A stretch of 64,000 nt of DNA from a virus. Taxonomy: Duplodnaviria; Caudoviricetes. Of this stretch, positions 3,759 through 43,171 are shown in pieces; position 1 is the stretch's first letter; the number at the start of each line of letters is the position of its first letter. The stretch covers positions 30,755 to 94,754 of IMG/VR virus record IMGVR_UViG_3300021256_000079, one strand, 5' to 3'. Position numbers and translations under genes: made by a program. The notes below the pieces were generated by a model. The model saw nothing but the letters and a program-made list of their open reading frames with translations, was not told where the DNA came from and did no database searches.

Positions 3759-3784
3759 CGCGTAAGAAACATGGTGTTTAATGG
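3758..3784 (+). promoter_or_regulatory. Promoter-like motif, copy 6
   Basis: ACGCGTAAGAAACATGGTGTTTAATGG followed by a hairpin. Confidence 0.75.
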
Positions 3785-3837
3785 GAGGACTAAGGAAACT
3801 TGGTCCTCTTATATTTTTCTCGAAAGGAGTCATACCA

Positions 3838-4653
3838 ATGAGTCTCAAGGTCAAGGGAAAAACGTTGCTTATTCTGGTGACAGGTGCTGGTATTGTAGTC
3901 ACAGCTTATCTTGCCGCTAAGAAAGCACCGGAAGCTCAAAAGAGAAAGGAGGAAGCACTTAAAGCAAAAAGAGAAGCCACTGGAGATGAGAACGCTCAGC
4001 TTACAACTACCGAGTCTATAAAGGCACAAATTGGTAGTTATGCGCCAGCAATTATTAGTGGTGTCGTAGCTTTTAGCAGTTTTATTGGAACCGAAATTAT
4101 TGACGAGCATGATATTCATAAGATTAAGCAGTCGGTAACGAACGATTTCAATAAACTTAAGAATTCACTAGATGACTACAAAACAATGACCGATAAGTTG
4201 AACGGCAATGGCTCTTCCAAGATAATTGAAAGAGCTATTGAACAAGACAATAAGACGTTTACAACAAGACAGTGGTACCGAATTGTATTTGAGGGTGAAA
4301 AACTTGAATTCCAGTCTACGCCAGAAGAGGTGATTAAAGCTTTTTATGAGGCGAATCGACAGTTTCAGGGTACAGGAATTCTGACATTTAATGAGTTTAT
4401 TGATTTTCTCGATCAGCAGCTATTGACAGATGAAGCTCAGCAAAAGGGTGAAGAACTCTGTTGGGAGGCTTTTGTATGTGACAACATCTTTGGCTACACG
4501 TGGCTAGACTTTGATATTCAGCCTTGTGAAGATAGACCCGACATGAAAGAGATCATCTTTCCTGTGATGCCTCGTTATATTGATGAGGAAGATCGATACC
4601 ATAAGATTAACGAAGCCTGTGCTAAAAAGATTACGGATGGTGATATTGAATGA
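3838..4653 (+). CDS. DUF6353-like phage protein (paralog family with 12047 and 16484)
   Basis: N-terminal hydrophobic GxxxTA helix, second hydrophobic helix, similar C-terminal domain; family name from memory. Confidence 0.65.
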   Translation: MSLKVKGKTLLILVTGAGIVVTAYLAAKKAPEAQKRKEEALKAKREATGDENAQLTTTESIKAQIGSYAPAIISGVVAFSSFIGTEIIDEHDIHKIKQSVTNDFNKLKNSLDDYKTMTDKLNGNGSSKIIERAIEQDNKTFTTRQWYRIVFEGEKLEFQSTPEEVIKAFYEANRQFQGTGILTFNEFIDFLDQQLLTDEAQQKGEELCWEAFVCDNIFGYTWLDFDIQPCEDRPDMKEIIFPVMPRYIDEEDRYHKINEACAKKITDGDIE

Positions 4654-4982
4654 CGCCTAAAACGTATGTACTCGAGGTTTCGGACGAAATCAATAGTGTT
4701 CCAAGTAGGATTAAGAGTATACAAAAACTGTTCAACGATGAGAATACGATCGTTACTCTTAACCTTATAAGAGAGGTGTTCGGATTGAGGCCGCTTAGAT
4801 CAGAGTATGAAATGTGCTTTGGTCCGAACACAGAAGAACCGCTGGATATTAGTGTATCTTACAGCTTTAATACTAGGATGCATGCTGAAAACAATTGTTA
4901 TACAATCAAGATTTCGAACGTCATCGATTTAAGATATTTTTATGAATGTTGTGAGGAGAGCGATTACTATGGAGACGATTAA
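4650..4982 (+). CDS. Hypothetical protein
   Basis: ATGA overlap with upstream gene. Confidence 0.7.
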   Translation: MTPKTYVLEVSDEINSVPSRIKSIQKLFNDENTIVTLNLIREVFGLRPLRSEYEMCFGPNTEEPLDISVSYSFNTRMHAENNCYTIKISNVIDLRYFYECCEESDYYGDD

Positions 4983-5292
4983 AATTAGTGATACAGATCT
5001 TAGGGAATATGCCAACGAAATTATGTCGAGCGATGAGTATCTCGCTCAGAGAGAAAAATACCATATGCACAACCCAAAGCACTATGTAAATGAATCGACG
5101 CATAGAGCAATCATGATGAGTTCTATTGATATTGCGAAAAAAACTATCGGCAGTAACGGTACTATTGAAGAGATCAAAAGAGCATGTGTCTATATGAGAA
5201 TCTGTATTGACGCAAGACAGTATCGACTGAACTATACGGCGGCAAAGAAAGAACTCAAAATTGATGAGCTTGTTCAGAAGTATTGTAAATAA
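4969..5292 (+). CDS. Protein resembling the post-catalytic helical segment of the phage RNAP
   Basis: EEIKRA..IDA..L..IDELVQKY aligns ungapped with RNAP EEIARA..IDA..L..IAELKTKY. Confidence 0.7.
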   Translation: METIKISDTDLREYANEIMSSDEYLAQREKYHMHNPKHYVNESTHRAIMMSSIDIAKKTIGSNGTIEEIKRACVYMRICIDARQYRLNYTAAKKELKIDELVQKYCK

Positions 5293-11666: not shown

Positions 11667-12050
11667 ATGTTGAAGCAATGGGAAAGATACCTGCAACAAC
11701 AATACGAGCAGGACCGAAGAAAACTATTGGACTATAGAGAGATTGATATTGAGTTTAAGCAATTAATAATGGAGGCGACAATACTCGATGGACCAGTTGA
11801 ACCTGATCCTGTCATTGATATTGTGCTCAATGATAGGGTTCATGATGGGGAATGTGTACGGACAGAACAAAGTAAAGTATCAGATCGAGAAATTGTTGGA
11901 CAGGATCATGAAGAGCCTGGGGGAGATCCAGAAGGGGACGGACGAGAAGAAGTAATCGATGATTACGACGATTCGTTCGATTCTTATTATGATGAAATTG
12001 TTGAATACAAGAACAGTAAAAAGACTGGTAAAAAGAAAAAAGGAAAATGA
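11667..12050 (+). CDS. Acidic hypothetical protein
   Basis: ORF with RBS. Confidence 0.7.
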   Translation: MLKQWERYLQQQYEQDRRKLLDYREIDIEFKQLIMEATILDGPVEPDPVIDIVLNDRVHDGECVRTEQSKVSDREIVGQDHEEPGGDPEGDGREEVIDDYDDSFDSYYDEIVEYKNSKKTGKKKKGK

Positions 12051-12880
12051 GGGATATTTTCATGAATGCTCTTTCAAAAATGACGAGACCACTTGTTAGA
12101 GTGACCAGAAATGGTATTCGATTCTTTAACAAGAATGCAAACTTGATATTGACAGTTGTTAGTGCAACTGGTGTTCTTGCCACTGTTGTATGTGCTGTTA
12201 AAGGGACTATTAAAGCTGTAAAGCTATATGAAGAGAAGAAACCGGTTGGCGGGAAAGAAATTGTTAAGACAGTTTGGAAATGTTATATTCCAACCGCTGG
12301 AATGGTGATTCTCACAACAACGGCCATCATTTGTAATGGCAGAATGAATGCTAAGAAGATTGCCATGTTGACCAGTGCTTATGGTTCATCCATGGAAGCT
12401 CTCAAGAGAGTTGAAGATAAAATGGGTGAAGCTCTTGGACCCAAGAAGGCTCAGCAGGTTATCGACGAAGTTCATAGCGAAAAAGCCGAAGCCTCAAGCA
12501 AAGTAATCACAGAGGATGATATTAAGAAAACCGGTCACGGCGATGAAATCTTCTTCATATACGATGTAGGTCAATGGATCTACGCGAATACAAACTGGAT
12601 CGAACTCGCGGAACTTAAGACCTATAAAGAACTTCAGGATAGTAACGACTGGAACGATGATGGAGAAGCATATTTGCTCATGAACAATGCTCTTCAGAAT
12701 CTCGGTGCGAATCCTTGTTATTTCGGCGGATCTCATGGATGGTTCCACGACGATCTTGAAAAGCTTGGACTGGATGGACCGAAGTTTAGAATTAGTTCAA
12801 AGAGGATGTTTGTTCCGTGGCTTGGCGAAGAAAGAGCCGTTGGCACAATCTGGTTTGAACCAGAGGCTTCAGTCATTTGA
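12047..12880 (+). CDS. DUF6353-like phage protein
   Basis: ILTVVSATGVLAT..WKCYIP architecture shared with 3838 and 16484. Confidence 0.7.
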   Translation: MRDIFMNALSKMTRPLVRVTRNGIRFFNKNANLILTVVSATGVLATVVCAVKGTIKAVKLYEEKKPVGGKEIVKTVWKCYIPTAGMVILTTTAIICNGRMNAKKIAMLTSAYGSSMEALKRVEDKMGEALGPKKAQQVIDEVHSEKAEASSKVITEDDIKKTGHGDEIFFIYDVGQWIYANTNWIELAELKTYKELQDSNDWNDDGEAYLLMNNALQNLGANPCYFGGSHGWFHDDLEKLGLDGPKFRISSKRMFVPWLGEERAVGTIWFEPEASVI

Positions 12881-15539: not shown

Positions 15540-15809
15540 ATGATGAATAATGAAGAAATGAAAAGCCCTTTGGATGCAGCAAAATTCGTTACTGGGACTA
15601 TTATATCCTTGGGTGCTGCAGCAGCGGTCGTTGGTATGATGCAAAACCCTATTAAAAACGCAAAAGGACTTACTAAGCTTATGATGAAACTTGGCGTTTT
15701 CGTTATTGGATGTAAAGTCGGAGACGTTGTGGAAAAGTATTTTAACGACACTGTTGACGAAATGGTTAAGGCATTTAACGATCTTAAGAAGGAGATGGGG
15801 AAAGCATGA
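15540..15809 (+). CDS. Small membrane protein
   Basis: RBS; two hydrophobic segments. Confidence 0.7.
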   Translation: MMNNEEMKSPLDAAKFVTGTIISLGAAAAVVGMMQNPIKNAKGLTKLMMKLGVFVIGCKVGDVVEKYFNDTVDEMVKAFNDLKKEMGKA

Positions 15810-16471
15810 ATGATATTCCATCCAATAGCCATAAAAGCCAGGAAGAATTGAATAAGGCTCCTCAAAAACCACCAATTCCGGAATTCAATGGCAAAGTAGC
15901 AGGCGTAAAAAGAAAACAGGAAAACAAATTCCTTAAATGGCTTCGCAAAATGTTCCTATCTGATCAAAAGCCCAGTGATATTCTTATGAATGTTCTTGAG
16001 CAACAAATTGTTCCAGGTATTAAAGACAATTTCAGGAACAGTCTTATGAGTTCTATTGATATGTTCATTTATCCGAACTCAAAACCAACCAGTCAGTCTA
16101 GTAACAACATTTCTTACAGCCGTATTTATAATTCGCAAAACAATAATGTAAATCAAGTAAAGACTCAATCGCAACCTAAAGTTCAGAGTCAAACACCTAA
16201 CACAAATGACTTTGACTTGAGTGCTGGGTTTACAAATCCTTGTTTTCATCGCCTCGATGAAGCCAATCAATTTCTCGGACTCATGCAGAACTATGACTAC
16301 CCGACTCTGTCTGTTCATACATTATATATGATGCGAAAGCAGCACATCGATTACACTTGGGATGCATATGGCTGGACCAAAGAAGAGATCGCTAATGTTA
16401 AAGTTGTTCATATTGACAATAGCGATTACCCCTGGATGATTGATCTTCCGCGTGCTCACGTTATTTCTTAA
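15806..16471 (+). CDS. Conserved phage protein (PSNSHK N-terminus, YGWT C-domain)
   Basis: Coupled ORF. Confidence 0.75.
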   Translation: MNDIPSNSHKSQEELNKAPQKPPIPEFNGKVAGVKRKQENKFLKWLRKMFLSDQKPSDILMNVLEQQIVPGIKDNFRNSLMSSIDMFIYPNSKPTSQSSNNISYSRIYNSQNNNVNQVKTQSQPKVQSQTPNTNDFDLSAGFTNPCFHRLDEANQFLGLMQNYDYPTLSVHTLYMMRKQHIDYTWDAYGWTKEEIANVKVVHIDNSDYPWMIDLPRAHVIS

Positions 16472-16483
16472 AGGAGAGATTTT

Positions 16484-17470
16484 ATGGGAATGCTCAGTAT
16501 TATTAAAACCGTACCTAAAGTTGCGAAAAGGGGACTCGGAAGGGTCCTCTTTTCCATTTCCAAAAACAAACCCCAAATTTTGCTCGGGGGAGGAATTATA
16601 TTAACGGTAGGCGGCTTCGTGTGGGCTGTTGTTAATGCCACTAAACTCAATGAAACCATGAGTGAAGGTGAAAAGGCCGTTAATGATATTCAGGAGAAGA
16701 TCAAGATCGAGGAAGGTAAAGAAGAAGTAGAGACTACTCTTGTCGATCTTAATAAGGAACTTCGCAAAGCTAAAAAAGATAACATTTTGAAGGTTGCATT
16801 CCTTATGGGTGCACCGACTCTAGTGTTTGTTGGTGGCGTTGCTATGACAGTTGGAGGCCACATTATATTACTCAGACGCTTTGGTCAGGTATCAGCATCA
16901 CTTGCAGCTCTTCAGCAAGCGTTTGCAAGATACAGACAAATGAACATTGCTGAACACGGAGAAGAGTGTGATAGAAGATATCGTTATGGTATCTCTAATA
17001 CTATCGAAACGGAATCCGTGATTACGGATGAAAACGGGAATGAAGTGAAAGGTAAAGCTCTAATCCCGGTTACGGACAAGGATCCTGCCAGTATGTTCAC
17101 TTTTATATTCTCTGAGGAGTTCTCAAGGAAGTGCCCTAAGGATCCTGTTGCCACGATTTCATTCCTTAGGTCTCAAGAAAAGTATTGGAACATGTGGATG
17201 CAGGCAACAGGCCGTCCTGTAACACTTAGTATGGTTCTTCAGGATCTTGGGATTGAACTTGATCCAGATGATCCTATGAACGATTATATTTTGGTAGCTG
17301 GTTGGCGTCCTAATGGGGAAGGAGATGGGTATATTGACTTCGGTATCATGAGATCTGTCAATAAGCCGACTCTCGACATGCTTGAAAACAGTGTCATGCT
17401 AAACTTCAACTGTGACGGTAACATTTACCACAGTGTACGGACCACAAAAGACGGAAAGAAGGTATGTTAA
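16484..17470 (+). CDS. DUF6353-like phage protein
   Basis: PQILLGGG..; C-terminal GW..YIDFG..LNFNCDG. Confidence 0.75.
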   Translation: MGMLSIIKTVPKVAKRGLGRVLFSISKNKPQILLGGGIILTVGGFVWAVVNATKLNETMSEGEKAVNDIQEKIKIEEGKEEVETTLVDLNKELRKAKKDNILKVAFLMGAPTLVFVGGVAMTVGGHIILLRRFGQVSASLAALQQAFARYRQMNIAEHGEECDRRYRYGISNTIETESVITDENGNEVKGKALIPVTDKDPASMFTFIFSEEFSRKCPKDPVATISFLRSQEKYWNMWMQATGRPVTLSMVLQDLGIELDPDDPMNDYILVAGWRPNGEGDGYIDFGIMRSVNKPTLDMLENSVMLNFNCDGNIYHSVRTTKDGKKVC

Positions 17471-17591
17471 ATGAACGAGTATGACTCTAAGCCTACGGAC
17501 GATATGATTAATTTTCTTGATATTGATCACGGATCCGATAGAATTATTATTCATTTTAACGTTGACGCGATTAAGAAGGAGGAAACTACAA

Positions 17592-18344
17592 ATGACAACG
17601 ATTAAAATTGGCGGAGTACTTCTTACTGGTTTTGCTGCTTACCTGATTCTTAGTAAGGCAATTGGCACTATTGATAATTCCACAAAGAGGGCTTGTGAAG
17701 CTTCTAAGTGGAAGAATTATTACAAGTGCTGGAGCGAAGGTAATGCAGAAGGCGAACCCATTCCTCCTGGATATTCTAGAAAGTCTGATACATCAACGAC
17801 CGGAGTCAATGAAAATAGCATCGATCAGGATCCTAATGAGGCCGCCGCTAAGGCCGCTGTAGACCTCATTAAGGAAGGTTTGTCAAAGCTGAAGGTTACC
17901 ATTACAAAGCATGCAGAGAAGCAGGAAAAGGTCTCTGAAGGGCAAGAAAAGGCATCTGCAGTTGATATTGTTGAATCACTGAAAGATTTTGACACAAAAG
18001 CCTATCAGCTGCCTGACGATGCTCCTCCTGTTGATATTGATCACGGGTTTGACAGAAAGGCCGAGATCTGTAGAATCAGTAATCTTATCATTAGTATGAC
18101 GAAAAGAAATGCTGATGAGGATGAACTTGAAAGGGCTATTATTCACTCGATGGTAATCATCGACGCTGAAAAGTATCATCTTGATTACATGCAATCCTAT
18201 ATTGATAATCGTATTGATCAGCTCATCGAGAAGTATCAGCCTGAGGTTAATGATATTGCTAACGACGTGATCGATTACATGGAAAAGAAATACGAGGTTG
18301 TAAATAAAGTAGAAGAGGAGAACAAAGATGAAACCGTGGATTAA
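17592..18344 (+). CDS. Membrane-anchored protein carrying a copy of the RNAP post-catalytic domain
   Basis: YQLPDDAP..HGF..SNLI..M...AD..E..RA..HSMV.IDAEK.HLD matches RNAP 29713-29979. Confidence 0.8.
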   Translation: MTTIKIGGVLLTGFAAYLILSKAIGTIDNSTKRACEASKWKNYYKCWSEGNAEGEPIPPGYSRKSDTSTTGVNENSIDQDPNEAAAKAAVDLIKEGLSKLKVTITKHAEKQEKVSEGQEKASAVDIVESLKDFDTKAYQLPDDAPPVDIDHGFDRKAEICRISNLIISMTKRNADEDELERAIIHSMVIIDAEKYHLDYMQSYIDNRIDQLIEKYQPEVNDIANDVIDYMEKKYEVVNKVEEENKDETVD

Positions 18345-19047
18345 GATTCTTATTGGTGTGGTTTCAGGATTTGCCGGTGGCTTTGCTGCCGGCTTCCTTT
18401 TTTGCAAAAAGATGAATGATATTCAGTTTGTTGAGATCGACGAAGAAGAAATGGCTCAAATCGAAGAAGATCTCAAGAAGACAGACAAAACAGACAAACA
18501 AGAAGCAATCAAGAAGGCTGTTGAAGAGACTGATCCTCAGAACGAAGACGAACTGAGGAATGCTCTTCAGGGTAAGGTCAGTTATATTCGTGCGGACCAG
18601 GAAGCAAAACAAAAGTTCGCATCGACATGGAATACGATCAAAGATTATTCCAGTGAGGAAAATGCTGACTCTATGCCAATTGATATTGAGGAAGGCTTTG
18701 ATGAAGAATTCCTTGAAACGATTGAGGAGGAAACGGTCGAGCCAGGACAGGTCGATCCTCCTCACATAATTTCGCTTAGTGAGTTCTACAACGAACGGCC
18801 AGAGTATGATAAAATCACTATTGAATGGTATGAAGAGGACGATACTTATGTAGACGAAAACGAAGAAATCATCGATGATATTTCTTCTTACATAGGTATG
18901 AACCGCGACAAACTGTTCAAAGAAAATGGACCGGACGATGATCCTGATATTCGGTTTGTAAGAAACGAACAATACGGCAGTGACTACGAAATTGTCCGTC
19001 ATCATATGAGCTATAAGGAGGCAACCGGTCTTGAGGAAGGAGAGTAA
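18328..19047 (+). CDS. Membrane-anchored acidic phage protein
   Basis: N-terminal TM; C-terminal FVRNE..DYEI. Confidence 0.75.
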   Translation: MKPWIKILIGVVSGFAGGFAAGFLFCKKMNDIQFVEIDEEEMAQIEEDLKKTDKTDKQEAIKKAVEETDPQNEDELRNALQGKVSYIRADQEAKQKFASTWNTIKDYSSEENADSMPIDIEEGFDEEFLETIEEETVEPGQVDPPHIISLSEFYNERPEYDKITIEWYEEDDTYVDENEEIIDDISSYIGMNRDKLFKENGPDDDPDIRFVRNEQYGSDYEIVRHHMSYKEATGLEEGE

Positions 19048-19053
19048 CAATGA

Positions 19054-19590
19054 ATGCGCAGCAGCGATCCATATTTTGAATGGCTGTGCGTAACGATTAA
19101 CAACCGCAATTATATTGAGCTGGCCCGGGCTCTGCACTCGATGGAGTTTCGGGCCAAGCTCCCTTCAGATCGCAATCGCGGTATGGATGGGATGCATCTT
19201 CGTGTTGATTTTATGGAAAGACACGGAGCTTTTGGATCCTCTACCAACAGAGGCAGTTGCACAATGTTGGAGTTTTTAATCGGTATTGCAAAGCATATGA
19301 GTTTTCTTATGTATGGAAACTCAAGTGACCATCGCACGGCTTATTATTTTTGGGTTTTGATAAGGAATTTGGGACTAGATAAGTGCACTGATGCAAATTG
19401 GTATACTATTAATGGCGATTTTTATGTCGAAGATGCTGTTCATAGGGTTCTTGATAGGCAGTATGACTATAATGGAAAAGGTGGACTCTTTCCATTGAGA
19501 CATCCTATGCAGGATCAAAGAGAAGTTGAGATCTGGTATCAAATGCATTCTTGGCTTGGGGAGAATAGCGATCTGGATCTAGACATGTAA
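19054..19590 (+). CDS. Conserved phage protein
   Basis: DRNRGMDG..LR; GGLFPL..DQREVEIWYQM. Confidence 0.75.
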   Translation: MRSSDPYFEWLCVTINNRNYIELARALHSMEFRAKLPSDRNRGMDGMHLRVDFMERHGAFGSSTNRGSCTMLEFLIGIAKHMSFLMYGNSSDHRTAYYFWVLIRNLGLDKCTDANWYTINGDFYVEDAVHRVLDRQYDYNGKGGLFPLRHPMQDQREVEIWYQMHSWLGENSDLDLDM

Positions 19591-19972: not shown

Positions 19973-20012
19973 CGTGGATTTATATTTTTCGAAAATGAAA
20001 GGAATAACAATT

Positions 20013-28008: not shown

Positions 28009-30807
28009 ATGGATTACCAAGATCGGAATGATGTGTACATGGACGAATTATATTTGTCCGATAGTGCATATCTCGAACACTATGGAACGCCTCGGCATTC
28101 TGGACGTTATCCATGGGGTTCTGGCGACAATCCTTATCAGAGACATGCCGATTTTCTGGCAAATTACTATAAATTGAAGGATAAGGGTTTGAGTCCAACC
28201 GAAATTGCTCGAAGTATGAACATGACCACATCGGTTCTTCGTGCTAAGGTCTCCTATGCTAACGATACTCTTAGGAGAGAAAGAGCTTCTCAGGCAATGA
28301 AGCTCAAAGAAAAGGGATATTCTAATACTGCAATAGCCAAAAGAATGAATTTGCCTAACGAAAGCTCAGTTCGAGCCCTTCTTAAAGAGAAGAGTGATAT
28401 TCGTGCTCAGCAGACAGAAAATTTGATGAAAGTTCTTAAGGCAACAGTTGAGGAAAAGAAGTATGTCGATGTTGGTGGTGGTTCCGAACTTCGGCTTAAT
28501 GTCAGTGAGACAAAATTGAAGAATGCATGTGTTCTTCTTGAAGAAGAAGGATATAAAATAACCACATTTAAAACACAGCAAGCTGGAACTCCTTATAAAA
28601 CCACGATTAAGGTGCTTACAAAGGCTGATGTTCCGAGATCGGAAATCAACCAACATCGTGGTGATATTGCTATTCCTAATTATTATTCAGAAGATCATGG
28701 TTTTACACTTAATAAAGTCGAGAGACCTGTTCCAGTAGATGGAAGCCGCATTTATATTCGCTATGGTGAAGAAGGCGGAAAAGAACGGGATGGCACAATT
28801 GAACTTCGTCGTGGTGTGGAAGATCTTGATTTGCATAATGCATTATATGCTCAGGTGAGAATTGCCGCAAAACAGCCTGGAACCGAAGGTGATGGAACAC
28901 ATTACCTTAAAGGCATGGCCTTATATGGAGACGATAAGGATTTTCCTCCTGGAGTCGACATTATATTTAACACCAAGAAACCTAAGGGAACAGAGATATT
29001 TGGTAAAGACACAGACACATCAGTGTTGAAACCAATCAAAGAAACAGCCGATCCTGACAACCCATTCGGAGCAACCATCAAAGACGATGTAGATCTCATA
29101 AAAGCACAGAGACATTATATTGGTGCCGATGGTGAAAAACATCTTTCAGCACTTAATATTGTCAATGAGGAAGGTAACTGGAACGAATGGTCTAGAACTC
29201 TTTCTAGTCAGTTCTTAGCAAAGCAGAATCCTTCACTTATTCGTAGTCAGCTTAAAGAAGCATATGATATGCGCAAAGAAGAATTCGATGAAATTGGTAA
29301 AATGACCAATCCGGCTGTTCGTAAGAAATTATATTCTTCATTCGCCGATGACTGTGATTCAGCAGCTGTTCATCTTAAAGGTGCTTCAATGCCAAGACAA
29401 AGGAGCCAAGTTATATTACCGATGCCTTGGCTAAAGGAAGACGAAGTGTATGCTCCAAATTTCCATGATGGAGAAACTGTAGTTCTCATTAGATATCCTC
29501 ATTCTGGTACTTTTGAGATCCCGGAATTGAAGGTTAACAATCGAGATCCTAAAGCTAAAGAGATATTAAAGACTCCCGATGGAAGAGATGCCATGGATGC
29601 TATAGGTATTCATCCAGCAGCTGCACAAAAACTGTCTGGTGCTGATTTCGATGGCGATACAGTTTTGGTTATTCCTAACAATGATCGAAGAATTCGTAGT
29701 ACACCTCTTATGGAGTCTCTTAGAAACTTCGATCCTGACATGTATCAGCTTCCACATGATGCACCTAAGGTTGATGCTAAGCATGGCTTTCATAAGCAGC
29801 AAGAAATGGGTAAGGTTTCTAACCTTATTACAGACATGACTATTAAAGGTGCCGATCTTGAAGAGATAGCTCGTGCTGTTAAACACTCAATGGTAGTCAT
29901 CGATGCTGAAAAGCATCACCTTGACTGGAGAAAGTCATTTGAGGACAATGGTATTGCTGAACTTAAGACTAAATACCAAGGTAGAGCTGATGCTGGTGCA
30001 TCTACTCTTATTTCCAGATCTAAGGGTCAAGCACATCCTTTGGATCGAAAGCTCTTAACTAATCCTAAGCTCATGACTAAGGAGCAAAGAGAACGTTTCT
30101 ACAACGGTGAGAATATTTATGTAGAAACTGGACGAACCAGAATCGATAGGAAGACAGGCAAAGAGGTACCAATTCGCATATCCTCCACGAAGATGGCTGA
30201 AGCCAAAGATGCTTTCGAACTATCATCTGGCACTCTTCAGGAAACAATTTATGCAAATTTTGCAAATCGTCTTAAGAATTTAGCAAATGAAGCTAGAAAA
30301 GCTGCCTTATTTACAGAGCCTGACAAGTACAATCCTTCTGCAAAGAAAGCATATGCTGCTGAAGTCGACTCTCTTAACAAAAAGCTATATTTGGCAGAGC
30401 TTAATCGTCCTCTTGAAAGAAAAGCACAGCTTCTTATGGCCCAGAAACTTCGTGCATATATGCAAGAGAACGACGATATGACAAGCGATGAAATAAAGAA
30501 GCTTAGAGGTAGACTTATCAAAGAAGCCAGAGCTTCTGTTGGCGCAAAAAAAGATCCTGTAGAGATTACAGATCGAGAATGGGAAGCCATCCAAGCACAT
30601 GCTGTGTCATATAATACACTGACAAAAATTCTTAATAACAGTGACATGGACCATATTAAGCAACTTTCCATGCCTAGAAACACTCCTGTCATGTCTGAAG
30701 CTAAGATTGCAAGAGCCAAGAACATGATGAATCAGGGTCGAACTAGAGAAGAGGTTGCTGAAGCCTTGAATGTCTCCATATCTACACTGCTCAAAGCTAT
30801 GCTGTAA
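28009..30807 (+). CDS. Phage DNA-directed RNA polymerase (double-psi beta-barrel, DFDGD type) with HTH domains
   Basis: RYPH and LSGADFDGD catalytic motif; N- and C-terminal HTHs; N-terminal LEHYG..WG tag. Confidence 0.85.
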   Translation: MDYQDRNDVYMDELYLSDSAYLEHYGTPRHSGRYPWGSGDNPYQRHADFLANYYKLKDKGLSPTEIARSMNMTTSVLRAKVSYANDTLRRERASQAMKLKEKGYSNTAIAKRMNLPNESSVRALLKEKSDIRAQQTENLMKVLKATVEEKKYVDVGGGSELRLNVSETKLKNACVLLEEEGYKITTFKTQQAGTPYKTTIKVLTKADVPRSEINQHRGDIAIPNYYSEDHGFTLNKVERPVPVDGSRIYIRYGEEGGKERDGTIELRRGVEDLDLHNALYAQVRIAAKQPGTEGDGTHYLKGMALYGDDKDFPPGVDIIFNTKKPKGTEIFGKDTDTSVLKPIKETADPDNPFGATIKDDVDLIKAQRHYIGADGEKHLSALNIVNEEGNWNEWSRTLSSQFLAKQNPSLIRSQLKEAYDMRKEEFDEIGKMTNPAVRKKLYSSFADDCDSAAVHLKGASMPRQRSQVILPMPWLKEDEVYAPNFHDGETVVLIRYPHSGTFEIPELKVNNRDPKAKEILKTPDGRDAMDAIGIHPAAAQKLSGADFDGDTVLVIPNNDRRIRSTPLMESLRNFDPDMYQLPHDAPKVDAKHGFHKQQEMGKVSNLITDMTIKGADLEEIARAVKHSMVVIDAEKHHLDWRKSFEDNGIAELKTKYQGRADAGASTLISRSKGQAHPLDRKLLTNPKLMTKEQRERFYNGENIYVETGRTRIDRKTGKEVPIRISSTKMAEAKDAFELSSGTLQETIYANFANRLKNLANEARKAALFTEPDKYNPSAKKAYAAEVDSLNKKLYLAELNRPLERKAQLLMAQKLRAYMQENDDMTSDEIKKLRGRLIKEARASVGAKKDPVEITDREWEAIQAHAVSYNTLTKILNNSDMDHIKQLSMPRNTPVMSEAKIARAKNMMNQGRTREEVAEALNVSISTLLKAML

Positions 30808-33889: not shown

Positions 33890-34087
33890 ATGGCAGAACT
33901 TTCTCTTCCTTTTTTGGCTACAAATGAAGAAGGAATCCCTAGTGGTTGTCCTCAGGGAAATTTGTATCGAGGTCATAGAATTAAAGTTTCTCTGATGTCT
34001 GACCATGAACCTTATGACATGGAAATAATCGAAGAGTCTATTGGTGTAGTTGTTCGTCCAATTAAAGAACAGCGTGGTGATGAATAG
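33890..34087 (+). CDS. Hypothetical protein
   Basis: ORF with RBS. Confidence 0.6.
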   Translation: MAELSLPFLATNEEGIPSGCPQGNLYRGHRIKVSLMSDHEPYDMEIIEESIGVVVRPIKEQRGDE

Positions 34088-34677
34088 TGCTATTCGAGGG
34101 AAACTATTTAGCGCATTACGGAATAAAGGGTCAAAAGTGGGGAGTTAGACGTTTTCAGAACGAAAACGGTTCATATACTCCAGAGGGTAAAGAAAGATAT
34201 GGACGAGACTCGAAAAAAGTTTTTAAATCTCCTGAAGCTCTTTCTAATTACATGAAGAAGATAAAATACAAAGAGTTCGATACATTAATGTCACCAGAAG
34301 AGGTTCAAAAGCAGAAACGAGGTTCTTGCCACGATCAGGTGATGTTTGAAATGAGTCAACTTAGAAAAATGGGTTATGATCCAAAAGCCTGTTTCGTTAT
34401 GGAATACGATAAAAACCAAGGCGGAATGACTCATTCTTTTGTGTATTATCGCGATAATGGTAAGGTGAATTGGATTGAAAACGCTTGGTCCGAGCGTGCT
34501 GGAATCAAATCTTACAATTCTCTTAAAGAGATTAAAAGCGAAATACGTAAAGCTCATTCTTCTGGAGAATATGGAGATATTTCTTCTTTTCCTAAAATTG
34601 TTTTCGGTGAGTTTGACGATTCAGAGCATGTTCCTGGCGAGACTCTTCAAGAATTAGTTGATAAGTGTCTTAAATAA
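34087..34677 (+). CDS. HYG-tag protein with papain/transglutaminase-like cargo
   Basis: LAHYGIKGQKWGVRR; GSCHDQ..THSF..WIE putative Cys-His-Glu triad. Confidence 0.75.
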   Translation: MLFEGNYLAHYGIKGQKWGVRRFQNENGSYTPEGKERYGRDSKKVFKSPEALSNYMKKIKYKEFDTLMSPEEVQKQKRGSCHDQVMFEMSQLRKMGYDPKACFVMEYDKNQGGMTHSFVYYRDNGKVNWIENAWSERAGIKSYNSLKEIKSEIRKAHSSGEYGDISSFPKIVFGEFDDSEHVPGETLQELVDKCLK

Positions 34678-34693
34678 AGGAGGATGTGTTCGA

Positions 34694-36448
34694 TTGCTCT
34701 CAAACACCGCTACGCCTAAATACTATGGGATGTTTCGAGATCAAGTGCTGAGAGGAGAAATTCCTGTCTGCAAAGAGATCGAAATGGAAATGAACCGAAT
34801 AGACGGACTTATTCGAAACCCGCAATTCTACTATGACATAGATGCAGTTGAAGGATTTGTAAAATTCTGTGAAAACGAGCTGACTCTAACTGATGGGTCA
34901 GATCTTTTTTTATTGGATACTTTTAAGCTTTGGTCAGAAGAGATATTTGGATGGTATTACTTCGTAGATCGAAGTGTAGCTGTTCAAAACGCAGATGGTC
35001 ACGGTATTCATTACGAGACTCGAAAAATTAAGAAGAGACTGGTTAATAAACAGTATCTGATTATTCCTCGTGGTGCTGCTAAGTCAATGTATGATGAATC
35101 AATTCAGGCATACTATTTAACAGTAGATACATCGACCACTCAACAGATTACAACAGCTCCTACAATGAAACAGGCCGAAGAAGTAATGACTCCTCTTCGT
35201 ACAGCTCTTGCAAGATCTCGTGGCCCACTTCTTAAGTTTATGACTGAAGGAAGTCTTCAGAACACAACTGGTAGCAAAGCCAATAGACAAAAGATGGCCT
35301 CAACTAAGAAGGGCATTGAGAACTTTCTTACTAATTCGATTCTTGAAGTTAGACCTATGTCAATGGACAAGCTTCAGGGTCTTAGAAGTAAGATTAATAC
35401 TGTCGATGAATGGTTGTCTGGAGCAATCAGAGAAGACGTTATTGGTACTCTTGAACAGGGTGCTTCTAAGAATGACGACTATTTGATCGTTGCAACTTCT
35501 TCTGAAGGTACCGTTAGAAACGGACCTGGCGACACAATCAAAATGGAACTAATGGACATACTTCGAGGCGACTATTACAACCCGCATGTGTCCATCTGGT
35601 ATTACAAGCTCGACGACATTAAAGAAGTCGAAGAAGGAAAGACTAATCCTATGGTCTGGCTTAAGGCTAATCCTAATCTTGGAAAGACAATTAGCTTTGA
35701 AACCTATCTTCTTGATGTAGAAAGAGCTGAAAAGAATCCCGCTGTTCGTAACGATATTTTGGCTAAGCGTTTCAATATTCCTATGGAAGGCTATACGTAC
35801 TTCTTTACATACGAAGAAACTCTTCCTCATAGAAGACGTGACTTCTGGCAAATGGCTTGCTCTATGGGAGCCGACCTTTCTCAGGGTGACGACTTTTGCG
35901 CGTTTACTTTCATGTTCCCTCTTGGCCGTGGACAGTTTGGCATCAAGACCAGATGTTACATCACCTCTTTAACCCTTAGTAAACTTCCTGCCGCTATGCG
36001 TATTAAATACGATAGCTTTATTAACGAAGGAAGTCTTATCATCATGGAAGGTACAGTTCTTGAGATGATGGACGTTTATGACGATCTTGATAGACACATT
36101 CAAGAGTCTGGATACGATGTAAGAACGTTTGGCTTTGACCCTTACAATAGTAGACAGTTTGTAGAACGATGGGTTAGAGAGAATGGCGAATTCGGAGTTG
36201 AGAAAGTCATTCAGGGTGCTAAGACAGAAAGCGTTCCTCTTGGAGAACTTAAGAAGCTTAGCGGAGAAAGAGCGCTTATATTTGATCAGGACATGATGAC
36301 GTTTGCTATGGGAAACGCCATAACGCTTGAAGATACAAATGGCAACCGCAAACTCTTGAAGAAACGCTATGACCAGAAGATTGACTCTGTCGCAGCTATG
36401 ATCGACGCTTACGTGGCCTATAAATTGAATACCGATATGTTTGAGTGA
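34694..36448 (+). CDS. terL: Terminase large subunit
   Basis: Walker A IPRGAAKS, VDEW, nuclease GADLSQGDD, KIDSVAA. Confidence 0.92.
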   Translation: MLSNTATPKYYGMFRDQVLRGEIPVCKEIEMEMNRIDGLIRNPQFYYDIDAVEGFVKFCENELTLTDGSDLFLLDTFKLWSEEIFGWYYFVDRSVAVQNADGHGIHYETRKIKKRLVNKQYLIIPRGAAKSMYDESIQAYYLTVDTSTTQQITTAPTMKQAEEVMTPLRTALARSRGPLLKFMTEGSLQNTTGSKANRQKMASTKKGIENFLTNSILEVRPMSMDKLQGLRSKINTVDEWLSGAIREDVIGTLEQGASKNDDYLIVATSSEGTVRNGPGDTIKMELMDILRGDYYNPHVSIWYYKLDDIKEVEEGKTNPMVWLKANPNLGKTISFETYLLDVERAEKNPAVRNDILAKRFNIPMEGYTYFFTYEETLPHRRRDFWQMACSMGADLSQGDDFCAFTFMFPLGRGQFGIKTRCYITSLTLSKLPAAMRIKYDSFINEGSLIIMEGTVLEMMDVYDDLDRHIQESGYDVRTFGFDPYNSRQFVERWVRENGEFGVEKVIQGAKTESVPLGELKKLSGERALIFDQDMMTFAMGNAITLEDTNGNRKLLKKRYDQKIDSVAAMIDAYVAYKLNTDMFE

Positions 36449-36457
36449 GGTTAAACT

Positions 36458-37054
36458 ATGGCAAAATATTATGGAATGATTTGGACATATGGAAAGAGCC
36501 TCGCTCACTTTGGTATAAAAGGCCAAAAGTGGGGTATAAGGCGTTTTCAGAACGAAGACGGATCGTATACTCCGGAAGGAAAAGAGCGTTATTCTCGTCG
36601 ATCAAAAGATATAGAATATGCAAAAAAATACGCTAAAAGTCAAATAGAAAAAGATAAGAAAAGTCTTGAATATTGGAGATCTGAAGTACAAAAATCTAAA
36701 GACATGCCTGCGACAAGAGAAGGAATAAAGAAACGGATTAACATCTCGGATGATGACTATGATGATTATTTAAGAGAATATAAGACTCCAGAAAACATTA
36801 AGAAAAGAATAATTTCTGATGATCAGCATGAGGCAAAAACTTTTAAAGAAAGTATTAAAGACTGGAATAAAAAGTTAAAAAGTCTCGAAAAGGTAAAAGT
36901 TGATGTTATTATGTCCGATAAACAACATCAGAAGCAGATCGATGATATCTTTACTCAGGCTCAAGGGAAGTTCTTTAGATTTGTAGAATTATACCCTCTA
37001 CATGAATTCATTAATGATTCAAGAAAACAAGATAAGCGTAAAAGTGCATCTTAA
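36458..37054 (+). CDS. HYG-tag protein
   Basis: LAHFGIKGQKWGIRRFQNEDGS. Confidence 0.8.
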   Translation: MAKYYGMIWTYGKSLAHFGIKGQKWGIRRFQNEDGSYTPEGKERYSRRSKDIEYAKKYAKSQIEKDKKSLEYWRSEVQKSKDMPATREGIKKRINISDDDYDDYLREYKTPENIKKRIISDDQHEAKTFKESIKDWNKKLKSLEKVKVDVIMSDKQHQKQIDDIFTQAQGKFFRFVELYPLHEFINDSRKQDKRKSAS

Positions 37055-37061
37055 AGATCTT

Positions 37062-37090
37062 TAAGCCGTTTCTAAAAAGACGGCTTTTAA
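37062..37090 (+). terminator. Terminator-like hairpin
   Basis: AAGCCGTTT..AGACGGCTT followed by Ts. Confidence 0.6.
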
Positions 37091-37093
37091 TTT

Positions 37094-37166
37094 GCTTCCA
37101 TAGCTCAGTGGTTAGAGCACCGGTCTTATAAACCGTAGGCCCCTAGTTCGAATCTAGGTGGAAGTA
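37094..37166 (+). tRNA. tRNA-Ile (anticodon UAU)
   Basis: Acceptor GCTTCCA/TGGAAGT, D arm, loop CTTATAA, T arm CCTAG-TTCGAAT-CTAGG; CCA not encoded. Confidence 0.88.
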
Positions 37167-37192
37167 CTAATTATTTTTGAGGAGGCCTTTGT

Positions 37193-37945
37193 ATGGGCGA
37201 ATATTACTCCGGTATTTTTGTTTCCGATGAAGCTCTCGCCCATTATGGCATAAAAGGTCAAAAATGGGGTTTTCGTCGATTTAGAAATGAAGATGGATCT
37301 CTAACTTCTGAAGGCCGTGACCATTATGGAATCGGAGATCCAAGGAAGCCTGGAGTCGCTGGATCTATTCGATACAATACTAGACAACAGGCCGAGCATA
37401 ACTATCGTATCAGAAGATTTGGATCGGCTTCAGCTAAAACTCTCGAAAGTAAACCTAAGCAGCTGAGTAAAAAAGAGCAGCAGATTAGAAAAACGAGAGC
37501 TAAACGATTACTCAAAACGGCGGCAATAGTTGGAATTGGTGTAGCTGCGATTTATGGCGTGCATCGTTACAACAAGACTACTGATAATTTGATTCAGCTT
37601 GCTAAAAATGACGTTCACAATACATACAAGATGGGCGAAAGCTCAATTAAGAATGCACAGGATAGAGCTAATCACGATTATTGGCGTGCACATGATATTA
37701 ACGCTATTACGACAAGAAGTGCTGCCAAGAAAGTACTGCACCTTAAAGGTTTAAAACAGACACACCAATTCATTAAAGCCAATAATCTCGCTAAGCGTAA
37801 GACAAGCGAGATTATGGAAAAACGTACTGGAAAGCTTATTGAAGGAATGACTAGAAGTCGACTGACTGGTGATTTTAAACCGATCTCTGAAAAGAAACGA
37901 AGAAAGATGGCTGAACGAATGGTTCGAAATCGAGTTGTATTCTAA
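37193..37945 (+). CDS. HYG-tag protein, basic, one hydrophobic helix
   Basis: LAHYGIKGQKWG. Confidence 0.8.
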   Translation: MGEYYSGIFVSDEALAHYGIKGQKWGFRRFRNEDGSLTSEGRDHYGIGDPRKPGVAGSIRYNTRQQAEHNYRIRRFGSASAKTLESKPKQLSKKEQQIRKTRAKRLLKTAAIVGIGVAAIYGVHRYNKTTDNLIQLAKNDVHNTYKMGESSIKNAQDRANHDYWRAHDINAITTRSAAKKVLHLKGLKQTHQFIKANNLAKRKTSEIMEKRTGKLIEGMTRSRLTGDFKPISEKKRRKMAERMVRNRVVF

Positions 37946-37967
37946 TTATTACAGGAGGGCACATATT

Positions 37968-38642
37968 ATGCTATACGAAACAAACTACCTTGAGCATCAC
38001 GGCATAAAAGGTCAGAGATGGGGGACTCGTCGTTTTCAGAACGAGGACGGAACTTTGACCGCAGAAGGACGAGATCGTTATGGTGTCGGTGAATCTGATT
38101 CTGCTAATTCACAAAAGAAGTCTAGAGCCGAAACCAGAGAAGAAAGAAAAGCTAGATACAAACGCGGTAAGGAGTTCGAGCGTGAACGTAGAGCTGAAGA
38201 ATCTCGAGATTATGAAAAACAGCTCAATGAAGATGAAGACTATCAAAGAGAAAAGCATAAAAAAGAGAGACTCGATTGGGACGCTGCTGTAAATCAGAAC
38301 CAGCCAAATTTTTATCGCGATTTGCACCGTTATGATGCAGATCAAAAAATGAAGGATAAAGAATACGTTGCTTCAGAAAAAGCGCAAAAGAACTCACGAG
38401 AGTATATTAGGAAAAAGCACGGAGATACAGCCATATCTGATATGGACTATTATACCTCGCAGTCCAAAAAGAAAAAGGCAATCGCTATGATCGCTACAGT
38501 GAGTGCGCTTGCGCTAGGATCGGTTCTGTATAATAAGCATCAGCAAAGGAAAGAAACACAAGCCTATTATAACGATCTTCATAGCCGATATAGTGCTGAA
38601 TTCGATAAGATTAATAGAATGAAGCGAAACGGAGCGTTCTGA
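37968..38642 (+). CDS. HYG-tag protein, one hydrophobic helix
   Basis: LEHHGIKGQRWG. Confidence 0.8.
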   Translation: MLYETNYLEHHGIKGQRWGTRRFQNEDGTLTAEGRDRYGVGESDSANSQKKSRAETREERKARYKRGKEFERERRAEESRDYEKQLNEDEDYQREKHKKERLDWDAAVNQNQPNFYRDLHRYDADQKMKDKEYVASEKAQKNSREYIRKKHGDTAISDMDYYTSQSKKKKAIAMIATVSALALGSVLYNKHQQRKETQAYYNDLHSRYSAEFDKINRMKRNGAF

Positions 38643-38646
38643 TACT

Positions 38647-39348
38647 ATGGAAAGATATTTGGAGCATTACGGTATAAAAGGCCAAAAATGGGGGGTTCGG
38701 CGTTTTCAGAATGAAGATGGATCGTATACTCCAGAGGGTAAAGAACGTTACAATCAAGGTTCTTCTGGAAAAAATAGTTTCGATCATAGAAAAGCTTCAT
38801 CTGGATTAGCTGGAGGTATTGGTGAAAGCGGCAAAACAGGTCGAATGATGAACAATACTGAAATTTGGCTAACTTCTGCGGCTACGAGCTTTATTATTCG
38901 TAGGTCGGCTTATGAGCATCGTAAAGTGAATGCTAAAAAAGAAATAGCTAAAGCCGAAATCAATAAAGATAAAGAACGAATAACAAAAGACAATCTAAAA
39001 GATATGTGTTCTAAATACAATCGTAAAGAGCGTCATGTTATTATCGATCAGATGAAAAATAAGCCCAATATGACATATGATAAGGCAACAGATAAGGCAG
39101 ATAGCATGCGGAATAAACGTCTGTTGAAGAATACTGCGTTGTATTTGGCTTCAACTGTTGCAGTTCCGCTTGCGATGATTTATGGTCCAAATGCCATGCG
39201 TAAAGTTCATGATTCTCTTGGAAAAAACAAGATGTTTCAAGAATTCTTGAGAAGTATGAAACATCGAAGCATGAAAGATGCAATCGTCCTTCGTAAAGAT
39301 GAGTGGGAAATTGACAAAGTATGGCAACTCCCATCTGGTCGCGGTTAA
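38647..39348 (+). CDS. HYG-tag protein
   Basis: LEHYGIKGQKWG. Confidence 0.8.
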   Translation: MERYLEHYGIKGQKWGVRRFQNEDGSYTPEGKERYNQGSSGKNSFDHRKASSGLAGGIGESGKTGRMMNNTEIWLTSAATSFIIRRSAYEHRKVNAKKEIAKAEINKDKERITKDNLKDMCSKYNRKERHVIIDQMKNKPNMTYDKATDKADSMRNKRLLKNTALYLASTVAVPLAMIYGPNAMRKVHDSLGKNKMFQEFLRSMKHRSMKDAIVLRKDEWEIDKVWQLPSGRG

Positions 39349-39393
39349 GCGATTTTTTTATTTAATGAAATTAGTGTTTTTGAGGTGGGCTTA

Positions 39394-39945
39394 ATGCTAT
39401 ATGAAACTAATTATTTGGAGCATCACGGTATAAAAGGCCAAAAGTGGGGAACCAGACGTTTTCAAAACGAGGACGGAACTTTGACCCCTGAAGGTGAAGA
39501 GAGATATGGTCATAAAAAGGATCGTGGCGATAAAGGTCTAATCCGAAAAACCATCGGTAGCGAAATGGGAAACTATGCTTTCGCTAAATGGAGAGAAAGA
39601 CGCCACGAAAAGAATCTCGCAAAAGCTGAAAAGGCTTCCGATCAGAAGAAAATCGATAAGTATAAGAGTAAAAAAGATGCTCAGGCAGCAGCTAATCGTA
39701 ATCTGGACGCCTATCGTCGTCATACTAAAGCTAGTACGTTGGTTGCTCAGAATTTACTCCTTACAGCTCCAGCTTTTAGGCACGCAAGAGCTAGAGGAGA
39801 GGGCATTTTAAGTTCTCTTGTTGAATCGTCGACTCCTATTGGTCCGATTTTACGAATGATGCGAGATAAGAAAGCTTATGGCAAATATCTAGTGTTTGGT
39901 ATCGACGATGGTGAAGATTTTGCAATTAAATTTGAAGATCGCTAA
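39394..39945 (+). CDS. HYG-tag protein
   Basis: LEHHGIKGQKWG. Confidence 0.8.
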   Translation: MLYETNYLEHHGIKGQKWGTRRFQNEDGTLTPEGEERYGHKKDRGDKGLIRKTIGSEMGNYAFAKWRERRHEKNLAKAEKASDQKKIDKYKSKKDAQAAANRNLDAYRRHTKASTLVAQNLLLTAPAFRHARARGEGILSSLVESSTPIGPILRMMRDKKAYGKYLVFGIDDGEDFAIKFEDR

Positions 39946-39969
39946 TACGTTCTAGGTGGATGATTAACT

Positions 39970-40785
39970 ATGACTTATGAAGAAAATTATTTGAAACACT
40001 ATGGTATAAAAGGCCAAAAGTGGGGAGCCAGACGTTTTCAAAATGAAGACGGATCTTATACTGCCGAAGGTAAAGAGAGATATGGACGTGGCGGCAATTC
40101 TGGACGCTCTGGAGCGATTAAAGGATTTAACCGTTCTGGAGGTGTTTATGATAAGTCAGACGGATCAAAAGATATGAAGCGTCTTAAGAAAGATGCTAAG
40201 AAAGATGCCGAAGATATGGCTCGTGCTAAAGCTTATTATGGCGAAGGAGCAGGTAATAGACGTAAGCAGATTAAAAATAGAATCAGCGAGCGCATGAAAG
40301 ATCCTGACTATAAGGCTGAATACGAAAAGCAGCTTGCTGCCCAGGACATGTCTAAGCATCAGAAAGCCGCTAACAGAGAACGACATGTTCAAGATGCCAA
40401 GAATACGGCTGCTAAAACAGCTCGCGGTATTAAGAATCTTCTACTCGGTGTTGGCTCGGCTTCTGTTGCAGCTGTCATGCTTTATAACGCAGCTAAATTT
40501 ACGGGCGCTGATAAAAAGATTGCTGAGTTTGGTAAAAAAGCGTTCAATGACATTTCAGATAAAGTGAAAAACTTTAAAAAGCCGCAGCTTAAAGATTTTG
40601 ATTGGTCTAAGAATCGTCCTACGAAATATGGATCTAATGATTATACAGCTCCTAAAAGTTCCCATACAGTTAATGAAAGTCAGTCTTCGCGACGTCCTGG
40701 TGGTATCGTTGAAAAGACTGATAGAACTAAACATGGGACAACACGCCCGTGGGTAGATAAAAATGGTCAGATTCATTACTATTGA
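39970..40785 (+). CDS. HYG-tag protein
   Basis: LKHYGIKGQKWG. Confidence 0.8.
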   Translation: MTYEENYLKHYGIKGQKWGARRFQNEDGSYTAEGKERYGRGGNSGRSGAIKGFNRSGGVYDKSDGSKDMKRLKKDAKKDAEDMARAKAYYGEGAGNRRKQIKNRISERMKDPDYKAEYEKQLAAQDMSKHQKAANRERHVQDAKNTAAKTARGIKNLLLGVGSASVAAVMLYNAAKFTGADKKIAEFGKKAFNDISDKVKNFKKPQLKDFDWSKNRPTKYGSNDYTAPKSSHTVNESQSSRRPGGIVEKTDRTKHGTTRPWVDKNGQIHYY

Positions 40786-40799
40786 GGAGGTGATAGTCA

Positions 40800-42254: not shown

Positions 42255-42262
42255 TGTTATAG

Positions 42263-43165: not shown

Positions 43166-43171
43166 AAAGAA

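Follow-up and report, generated by a model that had tools for sequence, protein, structure and literature searches.

A conserved phage gene, here called gene X, encodes a 250-residue protein (P0002) in which a segment of the phage's own putative RNA polymerase (P0001) has been placed behind an N-terminal hydrophobic segment and a scaffold shared with other proteins. The segment comes from the region following the catalytic DFDGD loop, is accompanied by neither the catalytic barrels nor the metal-binding loop, and has been kept under purifying selection. What the protein does is less certain; we tentatively prefer, at somewhat below even chances, to see in it a non-catalytic, membrane-tethered mimic of a polymerase surface.

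All coordinates refer to the window, i.e. the whole 64,000-nt stretch that was analysed, which corresponds to positions 30755-94754 of a 94,754-bp IMG/VR virus record. The major genes of the genome are all on the + strand. The features of gene X are the following:

17576-17582, + strand: Shine-Dalgarno sequence AAGGAGG, 9 nt 5' of the ATG at 17592, read from the sequence
17592-18344, + strand: gene X, encoding the 250-aa scaffold protein P0002 (ORF list; 19 full-length orthologs)
17607-17663, + strand: N-terminal hydrophobic segment, aa ~6-24 (Kyte-Doolittle 19-residue mean 1.75)
17664-17957, + strand: conserved scaffold, common to relatives with and without the insert
17967-18272, + strand: polymerase-derived insert, aa 126-227, homologous to aa 567-668 of P0001
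17985-18053, + strand: loop preceding the putative bridge helix, aa 132-154, motif YQLPDDAPPVDIDHGFD, newly invariant in the insert clade
18054-18104, + strand: putative bridge-helix equivalent, aa 155-171, in which I159-C160-R-I-S-N164-L-I-I-S168-M-T aligns with M600-G601-K-V-S-N605-L-I-T-D609-M-T of P0001
18117-18236, + strand: putative trigger-loop-equivalent helices, aa 176-215, in which H185-S-M-V-I-I190-D191-A-E-K194-Y195 aligns with H626-S-M-V-V-I631-D632-A-E-K635-H636 of P0001
18273-18341, + strand: acidic C-terminal tail ending in ETVD (alignments)

The phage polymerase

The gene from whose family the segment was copied lies downstream of gene X:

28009-30807, + strand: polymerase gene P0001, 932 aa, source family of the copied segment (ORF list, PHROG 4291, Foldseek)
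29644-29658, + strand: DFDGD of P0001
29707-30012, + strand: segment of P0001 homologous to the X insert, aa 567-668

P0001 is matched over its full length by PHROG 4291 ('RNA-dependent RNA polymerase', E 0), and the Pfam RdRP family PF05183 gave a sub-threshold match (15.1 bits vs a cut-off of 23.8). Homologs with approximately 48% identity are present in 250 deposited phages of Arthrobacter, Gordonia, Streptomyces, Lactococcus, Faecalibacterium and others. The family has been described as the signature gene of a phage supercluster made up of Lactococcus 1706, Faecalibacterium FP_oengus and the actinophage clusters BI-AM-AU-AW-DJ-CC-EL, where it is termed an 'HTH/RdRP-like' polymerase and its polymerase activity is called potential (bioRxiv 10.1101/842583). 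HTH domains are found at both the N- and the C-terminus of P0001, and in the catalytic loop (S543-G-A-D546-F-D548-G-D550) the stretch D546-F-D548-G-D550 is invariant in 46 homologs. An AF2 model built with these 46 homologs (pLDDT 84, pTM 0.75) was used for Foldseek searches, in which QDE-1 was the best match (E 6.5e-9), followed by plant RDR2 and the phage polymerases P32 gp64 and P74 gp62. Because the model matches these enzymes, P0001 is regarded as a putative single-subunit two-barrel (QDE-1/RdRP-like) RNA polymerase.

The N-terminus of P0001 has a further peculiarity. Ten ORFs around terL and before the portal gene (34087-44077) start with a common tag, L.HYGIKGQKWG.RRFQNEDGS.T.E (as a regular expression), and the polymerase N-terminus (28009-28150; YLEHYGTPRHSGRYPWGSG..PYQ) is a variant of this tag, which is invariant across the polymerase family and disordered in the model. 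On the head-module ORFs and on the polymerase, the tag might serve as an address for packaging or ejection.

Which part of the polymerase was copied

In BLASTP, residues 126-227 of P0002 aligned with residues 567-668 of P0001 without gaps (51 of 102 positions identical, 50%; 73 of 102 positive; E 5e-31). When the window was searched with P0001 by tblastn, the region 17967-18272 was found with E 1.9e-26, the next match was 5164-5283 (E 0.076) and the remainder was noise. PHROG 4291 matches X in the insert alone, at profile positions 534-664 of 909 (E 6e-26). The copied stretch begins 17 residues past DFDGD; similarity is confined to residues 567-668 of P0001, and P0002 has neither the two double-psi barrels nor the DxDGD metal-binding loop. 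The homology proposed in the first-pass annotation, with a segment following DFDGD, is thus borne out, as is the N-terminal hydrophobic anchor, located at residues ~6-24. That annotation went too far in speaking of a close copy: at 50% identity to P0001, and at 50-54% to every polymerase of the family, its own included, the insert is neither a close nor a recent copy.

In QDE-1, the bridge helix (L1082-G1083-M1084..N1087) contacts the template strand, with N1087 as a template-contacting residue, and the trigger-loop subdomain spans residues 1102-1136, of which V1115, D1116 and K1119 contact the NTP (PMC9508822). In P0001, M600-G601-K-V-S-N605 lies in a long helix (596-612) and I631-D632-A-E-K635 ends the next one (617-636). 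The two motifs are 31 residues apart in the phage polymerase vs 33 in QDE-1, and the motif residues of P0001 are invariant in the 46 homologs. Because these motifs and their spacing parallel those of QDE-1, and in view of the global fold match, we infer that the copied segment comprises the bridge helix and the trigger-loop helices, together with the loop that follows the second barrel. The helices of the insert follow one another in the same order in the AF2 models of P0002 and P0001. When solved structures were searched by sequence with the polymerase profile and with the segment, the matches were limited to HTH proteins and, weakly and through DFDGD, the P23-45 tape-measure polymerase; these searches gave no residue-level alignment to QDE-1. 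With the isolated module, a VIA-align wide search yielded generic helical bundles (best Z 6.1; ZmRDR2 778-931 at Z 4.3, rank 44) and was thus not discriminating.

Conservation of gene X and selection on the insert

Nineteen full-length orthologs of X, 52-96% identical, were obtained from metagenome assemblies. The Met start is at the equivalent position in all of them and the reading frame is kept in 19 of 19. At its 3' end, the last 17 nt of gene X overlap the start of the next gene (18328). Pairwise dN/dS values (Nei-Gojobori, nine orthologous X genes) were approximately 0.20 for the whole gene, 0.20 for residues 1-65, 0.43-0.60 for residues 66-122, 0.155 for the insert and 0.14 for the tail, with dS saturating in the most distant pair. 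The window differs from L011 by 3 nonsynonymous and 23 synonymous substitutions, and from L001 by 0 and 6, respectively. Comparison of the orthologs thus shows ORF 17592-18344 to be a conserved early phage gene whose insert is under purifying selection; selection had been surmised before, with a ratio near 1 named as the finding that would speak for neutrality.

The insert of P0002 is identical at the protein level (100%) to those of P0011 and P0012, which carry the other N-terminal type. Such reshuffling of the N-terminal scaffold types (MTTIKIGG and MIKLKVGG) and of insert variants is seen among the X orthologs, and the identity of the insert in these three proteins despite their different N-terminal types therefore indicates that recombination moved a conserved insert between backgrounds. 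The mosaic nature of phage genomes and this reshuffling could speak for a neutral recombination scar, or for a functionless, mis-called ORF. We give this explanation almost no weight: a dN/dS of 0.155 with saturating dS in the most distant pair, an insert identical in P0002, P0011 and P0012 across N-terminal types, a frame kept in every ortholog and a strong ribosome-binding site all argue against it.

Two further observations concern the surroundings of gene X. A 44-aa ORF (17471-17605) lies between the DUF6353 gene and X and overlaps the start of X; every orthologous locus has a gene of 36-40 aa called there. Within the early half of the genome, the + strand contains 9 copies of the 10-mer TAATGAAAGG, which runs into a ribosome-binding site (227, 597, 1245, 10019, 25503 and nearby). 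No exact copy is found between 10019 and 25503, where a shorter variant, AATGAAAGGA, is present at 19994; gene X is therefore placed within a long unit.

Scaffold and cargo slot

X has a single hydrophobic segment, with one K/R residue before it and three to four in the 15 residues after it. By the positive-inside rule the segment is predicted to be a signal-anchor with N-out/C-in topology, which would place the insert in the cytoplasm, although it may instead be a cleavable signal peptide. The anchor is followed by a block with CEASKWKNYYKCWS (WKNYYK) and PPGYS (aa 35-62), a Ser/Thr-rich stretch that varies, an amphipathic helix (aa 81-99) and, at aa 116-122, the motif EGQEKAS. The C-terminal residues E247-T-V-D250 are invariant among X orthologs and are present also in the insert-less relatives P0023-P0028. 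In the AF2 model of P0002 the insert is the one confidently folded part (pLDDT 66-87, all helical), the rest being the anchor and a low-confidence linker. Foldseek found no match for the whole P0002 model, and no look-alike of the X scaffold was found in the protein atlas.

The scaffold family (P0002-P0032) is characterized by the N-terminal hydrophobic segment, the WKNYYK and PPGY blocks and an E-G-Q/D-x-E-A motif, and by lying between DUF6353 and the g239 homolog, an arrangement that is syntenic in L001, L002/L003 and L008-L014. Whether orthologs lacking the insert exist had been raised as a check, and they do: the positional orthologs P0023-P0032, including that of the sister phage G001, are insert-free and keep the anchor, the CEASKWKNYYKCWS and PPGYS blocks, the amphipathic helix, an EASEGQ.EAS motif and, mostly, ETVD. 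As these relatives share the scaffold and some of them carry other cargo, the polymerase segment fills a variable cargo slot. Some of P0023-P0032 have as cargo a Cys-rich element, CP..C..C....CPY, that may be a zinc ribbon; others have a short DENGKPVAGRYSW motif, found in some orthologs after the polymerase insert as well. A search of this genome and of the loci fetched turned up no phage protein from which the Cys-rich and DENGKPVAGRYSW cargos could have been copied. The insert-less orthologs may be deletion derivatives, or the insert may have been gained in X: P0025, P0027 and P0028 contain the sequence FKDFDKE, which resembles LKDFDTK of the insert in an ambiguous alignment.

Residue pattern in the insert

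Insert sequences and polymerases were compared over 99 columns. In 18 of these the same residue is at least 90% conserved in both groups; they comprise the hydrophobic core, H-S-M-V and I-D-x-x-K. Several residues that are invariant in the polymerases have been replaced in the insert: M600 by I, G601 by C or S, and H636 by Y (in 20 of 20 insert sequences); the constraint on D609 is relaxed, and the trigger-loop I-D-x-x-K is retained. At the position of QDE-1 N1087 the insert clade has N, S or D. Conversely, 14 columns that vary among the polymerases are at least 95% fixed in the insert, and 12 of the 14 fall in residues 132-154, the loop before the putative bridge helix. The residues conserved, dropped and newly fixed form the pattern expected for a folded replica that has lost catalytic-context residues and come under new constraint in one loop. 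In that loop the insert is 63% identical to P0034 and 55% to the polymerases of this phage and of G001, against a mean of 33% over 98 polymerases, a likeness that points to an origin in the polymerase type of the phage's own lineage.

These data also bear on the idea that the fragment was captured by recombination and is kept as a helical-bundle spacer or oligomerisation unit of a membrane complex, with no link to the polymerase left. The fold is a generic three-helix bundle, the residues shared with polymerases are mostly those of the hydrophobic core, and other family members fill the slot with unrelated cargo, all of which would suit such a structural domain. What it leaves unaccounted for is the retention of the polar trigger-loop residues D191 and K194 and the freezing of a loop that is lineage-specific in polymerases. 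Moreover, the module occurs in at least three other non-polymerase contexts (see below), always in DNA of phages of the polymerase type, which is more than expected for an arbitrary bundle. We therefore consider a purely structural role unlikely.

The early cassette

Gene X belongs to a cassette of early genes, delimited by synteny and profile matches:

15806-19590, + strand: early cassette g221, DUF6353, 44-aa ORF, X, g239, g178
first in the cassette, + strand: g221 (phrog_4079)
16484-17470, + strand: DUF6353, two TM segments
18328-19047, + strand: g239 (phrog_4695), N-terminal TM, very acidic
19054-19590, + strand: g178 (phrog_4678), the most conserved cassette member

The order g221-DUF6353-X-g239-g178 is conserved in L001, L002/L003 and L008-L014, and the cassette is located just upstream of the genes for primase-polymerase, SSAP, helicase and exonuclease. 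By hydropathy prediction three adjacent cassette products are membrane-anchored. The polymerase of IMG/VR record G001 shares 85% identity with P0001, and yet the X gene found there in synteny (P0027, 188 aa) is without the insert. The distant relative L016, with cassette proteins 27-53% identical, has the cassette without X and, between g221 and DUF6353, a gene for a 134-aa stand-alone module (P0036). That the cassette persists between phages whose cassette proteins are merely 27-53% identical is an observation in its own right.

The genome has three DUF6353 paralogs (3781-4653, 12047-12880 and 16484-17470), for all of which two TM segments and a C-terminal domain in the cytoplasm are predicted. 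Two of the three adjoin a module gene or are one gene away from it, and in L016 the stand-alone module gene directly precedes DUF6353. DUF6353 was considered as a constant neighbour of module genes; this fits P0002, P0003 (one gene apart) and P0036, and fails in G001 (L018:2088-2765, - strand), where the P0003 ortholog is preceded by a RadC/JAB-like gene. No paper on DUF6353 was found in the literature searched.

The position of gene X next to replication genes suggests that the module might keep an affinity for nucleic acid or for the polymerase, and serve to anchor early transcription or replication complexes to the membrane. An N-terminal anchor with predicted cytoplasmic orientation and the presence of three adjacent membrane-anchored products would agree with such a tether or organiser, as would the contact of the QDE-1 bridge helix with the template strand (PMC9508822). 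The module itself is less suited to the task. It is acidic (21 D/E vs 11 K/R), which is unfavourable for nucleic-acid binding, the residue equivalent to N1087 varies in the insert clade, and once removed from the cleft the helices offer no evident geometry for binding DNA. This alternative, in which X would resemble p16.7 of phi29, appears improbable to us.

Other carriers of the module

A search of the whole 94,754-bp genome with the insert profile detected three carriers of the module: P0001, P0002 and a soluble protein:

4942-5292, + strand: P0003, second non-polymerase copy, 116-aa soluble protein, aa 42-115 matching the module, no hydrophobic segment

P0003 was found with the insert profile at E 1e-7 (pairwise, E 1e-4 to the polymerase and 8e-8 to P0002); its orthologs are 64-96% identical and that of G001 is 47% identical. 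An exhaustive HMMER profile search of 1.84 billion representatives gave 1111 matching proteins. Nearly all of the best 150 of these 1111 are 880-1040 aa long with the module at residues ~530-690, or are obvious truncations of such genes; besides P0003, the true non-polymerase carriers among the best 150 are the insert clade, P0036, P0131 and P0180. In P0131 (L015:2509-2835) and P0180 (L019:1247-1630) a short, unrelated N-terminal hydrophobic anchor is joined directly to the module, and the charges flanking the anchors once more place the module, by prediction, in the cytoplasm. Each is a complete ORF with small genes around it, on a low-GC phage-like contig whose length does not suffice to tell if a polymerase is encoded; a CCKCKEKC stretch is found in P0180.

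Searches of 50,697 deposited phage genomes gave no match with P0003 (tblastn) and, with P0002 and P0036, only the polymerase genes of 250 records; the bridge-helix/trigger-loop segment was not found there as a separate gene. The IMG/VR scan returned only polymerase genes with P0131 and nothing with P0036. A word-index search for the insert alone among longer proteins had no match, which reflects a limit of the index and is superseded by the HMMER search.

In a tree of the segment the polymerases form one clade (support 0.85-0.95) with all non-polymerase copies outside it; with ~95 columns this topology may reflect long-branch behaviour. The changes of M600 to I and of H636 to Y are common to most non-polymerase copies, which fits either one old exaptation or convergent change. 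The first-pass annotation had the domain copied out twice, the other copy at 4969-5292. Two non-polymerase copies do exist, the second as ORF 4942-5292, and they may go back to two separate events. Because the non-polymerase copies share derived residues, two copying events are indistinguishable from one old exaptation followed by spread, and after the addition of further polymerases to the tree P0131 and P0180 could still be counted either as independent captures or not.

The repeated anchoring of the module in unrelated proteins also suggests a superinfection-exclusion trap, in which the anchored module would dock into the injected, still unfolded polymerase of a related phage and replace its native helices, leaving a dead enzyme. 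The predicted location at the inner membrane face is suitable for this, core-facing residues are kept while catalytic-context residues are changed, and the polymerase N-terminus with its variant of the tag of ten head-module proteins is compatible with packaging. The scheme presupposes, however, a packaged polymerase, which is so far hypothetical, and the location of the gene, among the early lytic ones, is atypical of prophage-expressed morons; we rate it as very unlikely. A complex prediction with the insert (120-222) and the polymerase deprived of its own module (135-566 + 669-850) scored 0.00, which is no answer and counts neither way. In a wider form of the idea, to which we assign a slim chance, copied-out bridge-helix/trigger-loop modules would be a new class of proteins acting in trans against the two-barrel polymerase, the anchored form excluding a superinfecting relative by occupying the helix slot of its injected polymerase.

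Proposed role of X

The reading of X as a membrane-tethered mimic starts from what the insert has lost. With no barrel and no metal-binding loop it is unable to polymerise; since the module is nevertheless under selection and has become membrane-anchored at least twice, a binding role is favoured. The features on which assignment to the mimic class was based are that the insert duplicates part of a polymerase encoded in the same genome, lacks a catalytic barrel, has polymerase-invariant residues replaced and shows a dN/dS of 0.155. In the proposed mechanism X would display, at the inner face of the membrane, a folded and catalytically dead replica of one polymerase surface. It would bind a factor that also recognizes this surface, be it a regulator of phage or host origin or else an inhibitor or sensor of the host, and as a mimic or decoy would titrate or relocate that factor, probably in cooperation with the neighbouring membrane proteins DUF6353 and g239.

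Three considerations weigh against the mimic. The isolated module, modelled as a generic three-helix bundle, could serve any helical-bundle role. In the intact polymerase the copied helices line the cleft and are partly buried, and it is unclear how much recognizable surface this leaves. Finally, because the sister phage G001 manages without the insert, the function is dispensable, or redundant with the P0003-type copy that G001 keeps.

Comparison with known systems

Protein mimics and decoys are used in phage-host conflicts, and a formal parallel is found in the integrated decoys of plant NLRs, in which the duplicate of a domain of the target sits within an unrelated scaffold and is maintained by selection, its original activity having been lost. 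X resembles them in all these respects; it differs in that a small membrane protein provides the scaffold, in place of a receptor with signalling output, and its decoy partner is hypothetical. Small membrane-anchored phage proteins are well known: p16.7 of phi29 consists of an N-terminal TM helix and a cytoplasmic DNA-binding domain, and HK97 gp15, the lactococcal Sie2009 and T4 Imm are membrane-anchored superinfection-exclusion proteins. Like X, these are small, expressed early or from a prophage, and hold a domain at the membrane by a single N-terminal anchor. Unlike X, none of them contains, to our knowledge, a polymerase fragment, and they have no relation to X in sequence or fold.

With QDE-1 and the supercluster polymerases X shares the segment after DxDGD, including helix order, hydrophobic core and the trigger-loop I/V-D-x-x-K. 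It differs from them in being a 250-aa membrane-anchored protein without double-psi barrels, DxDGD and HTH domains, in which the residues corresponding to M600, G601, D609 and H636 are altered. In the jumbo-phage RNA polymerases of phiKZ and AR9 the beta-prime-like subunits are split, so that the half bearing bridge helix as well as trigger loop forms a polypeptide of its own (PMC4666361, PMC9209446). As in X, this region is thereby on a polypeptide separate from the DFDGD barrel. In contrast to X, the phiKZ and AR9 piece is an obligatory subunit of the enzyme, whereas the polymerase of the present phage retains an intact module of its own, and it is an additional copy that has diverged and become membrane-anchored.

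A bridge-helix/trigger-loop segment occurring as a separate or membrane-anchored protein was not reported in the literature searched. What is new is thus the reuse of a polymerase piece as a membrane-anchored protein; the polymerase family as a putative enzyme, and the duplication of domains into mimic- or decoy-like proteins, are known.

The supercluster polymerase has barely been studied, though its phages infect Lactococcus, Faecalibacterium, other gut Firmicutes and many actinobacteria. That its active-site helices were copied into non-enzymatic proteins, maintained by selection and repeatedly tied to the membrane points to some factor or process by which this region of the enzyme is acted upon. 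The soluble module of ~100 residues, with its frozen 23-residue loop, offers a handle with which to fish for such a factor. If X turned out to be merely a reused helical bundle, it would still illustrate cleanly how a domain can be exapted into a scaffold that has a variable cargo slot; if the decoy or the trap were true, this would be the first catalytic element of a polymerase reused as a competitor in phage-host or phage-phage conflict.
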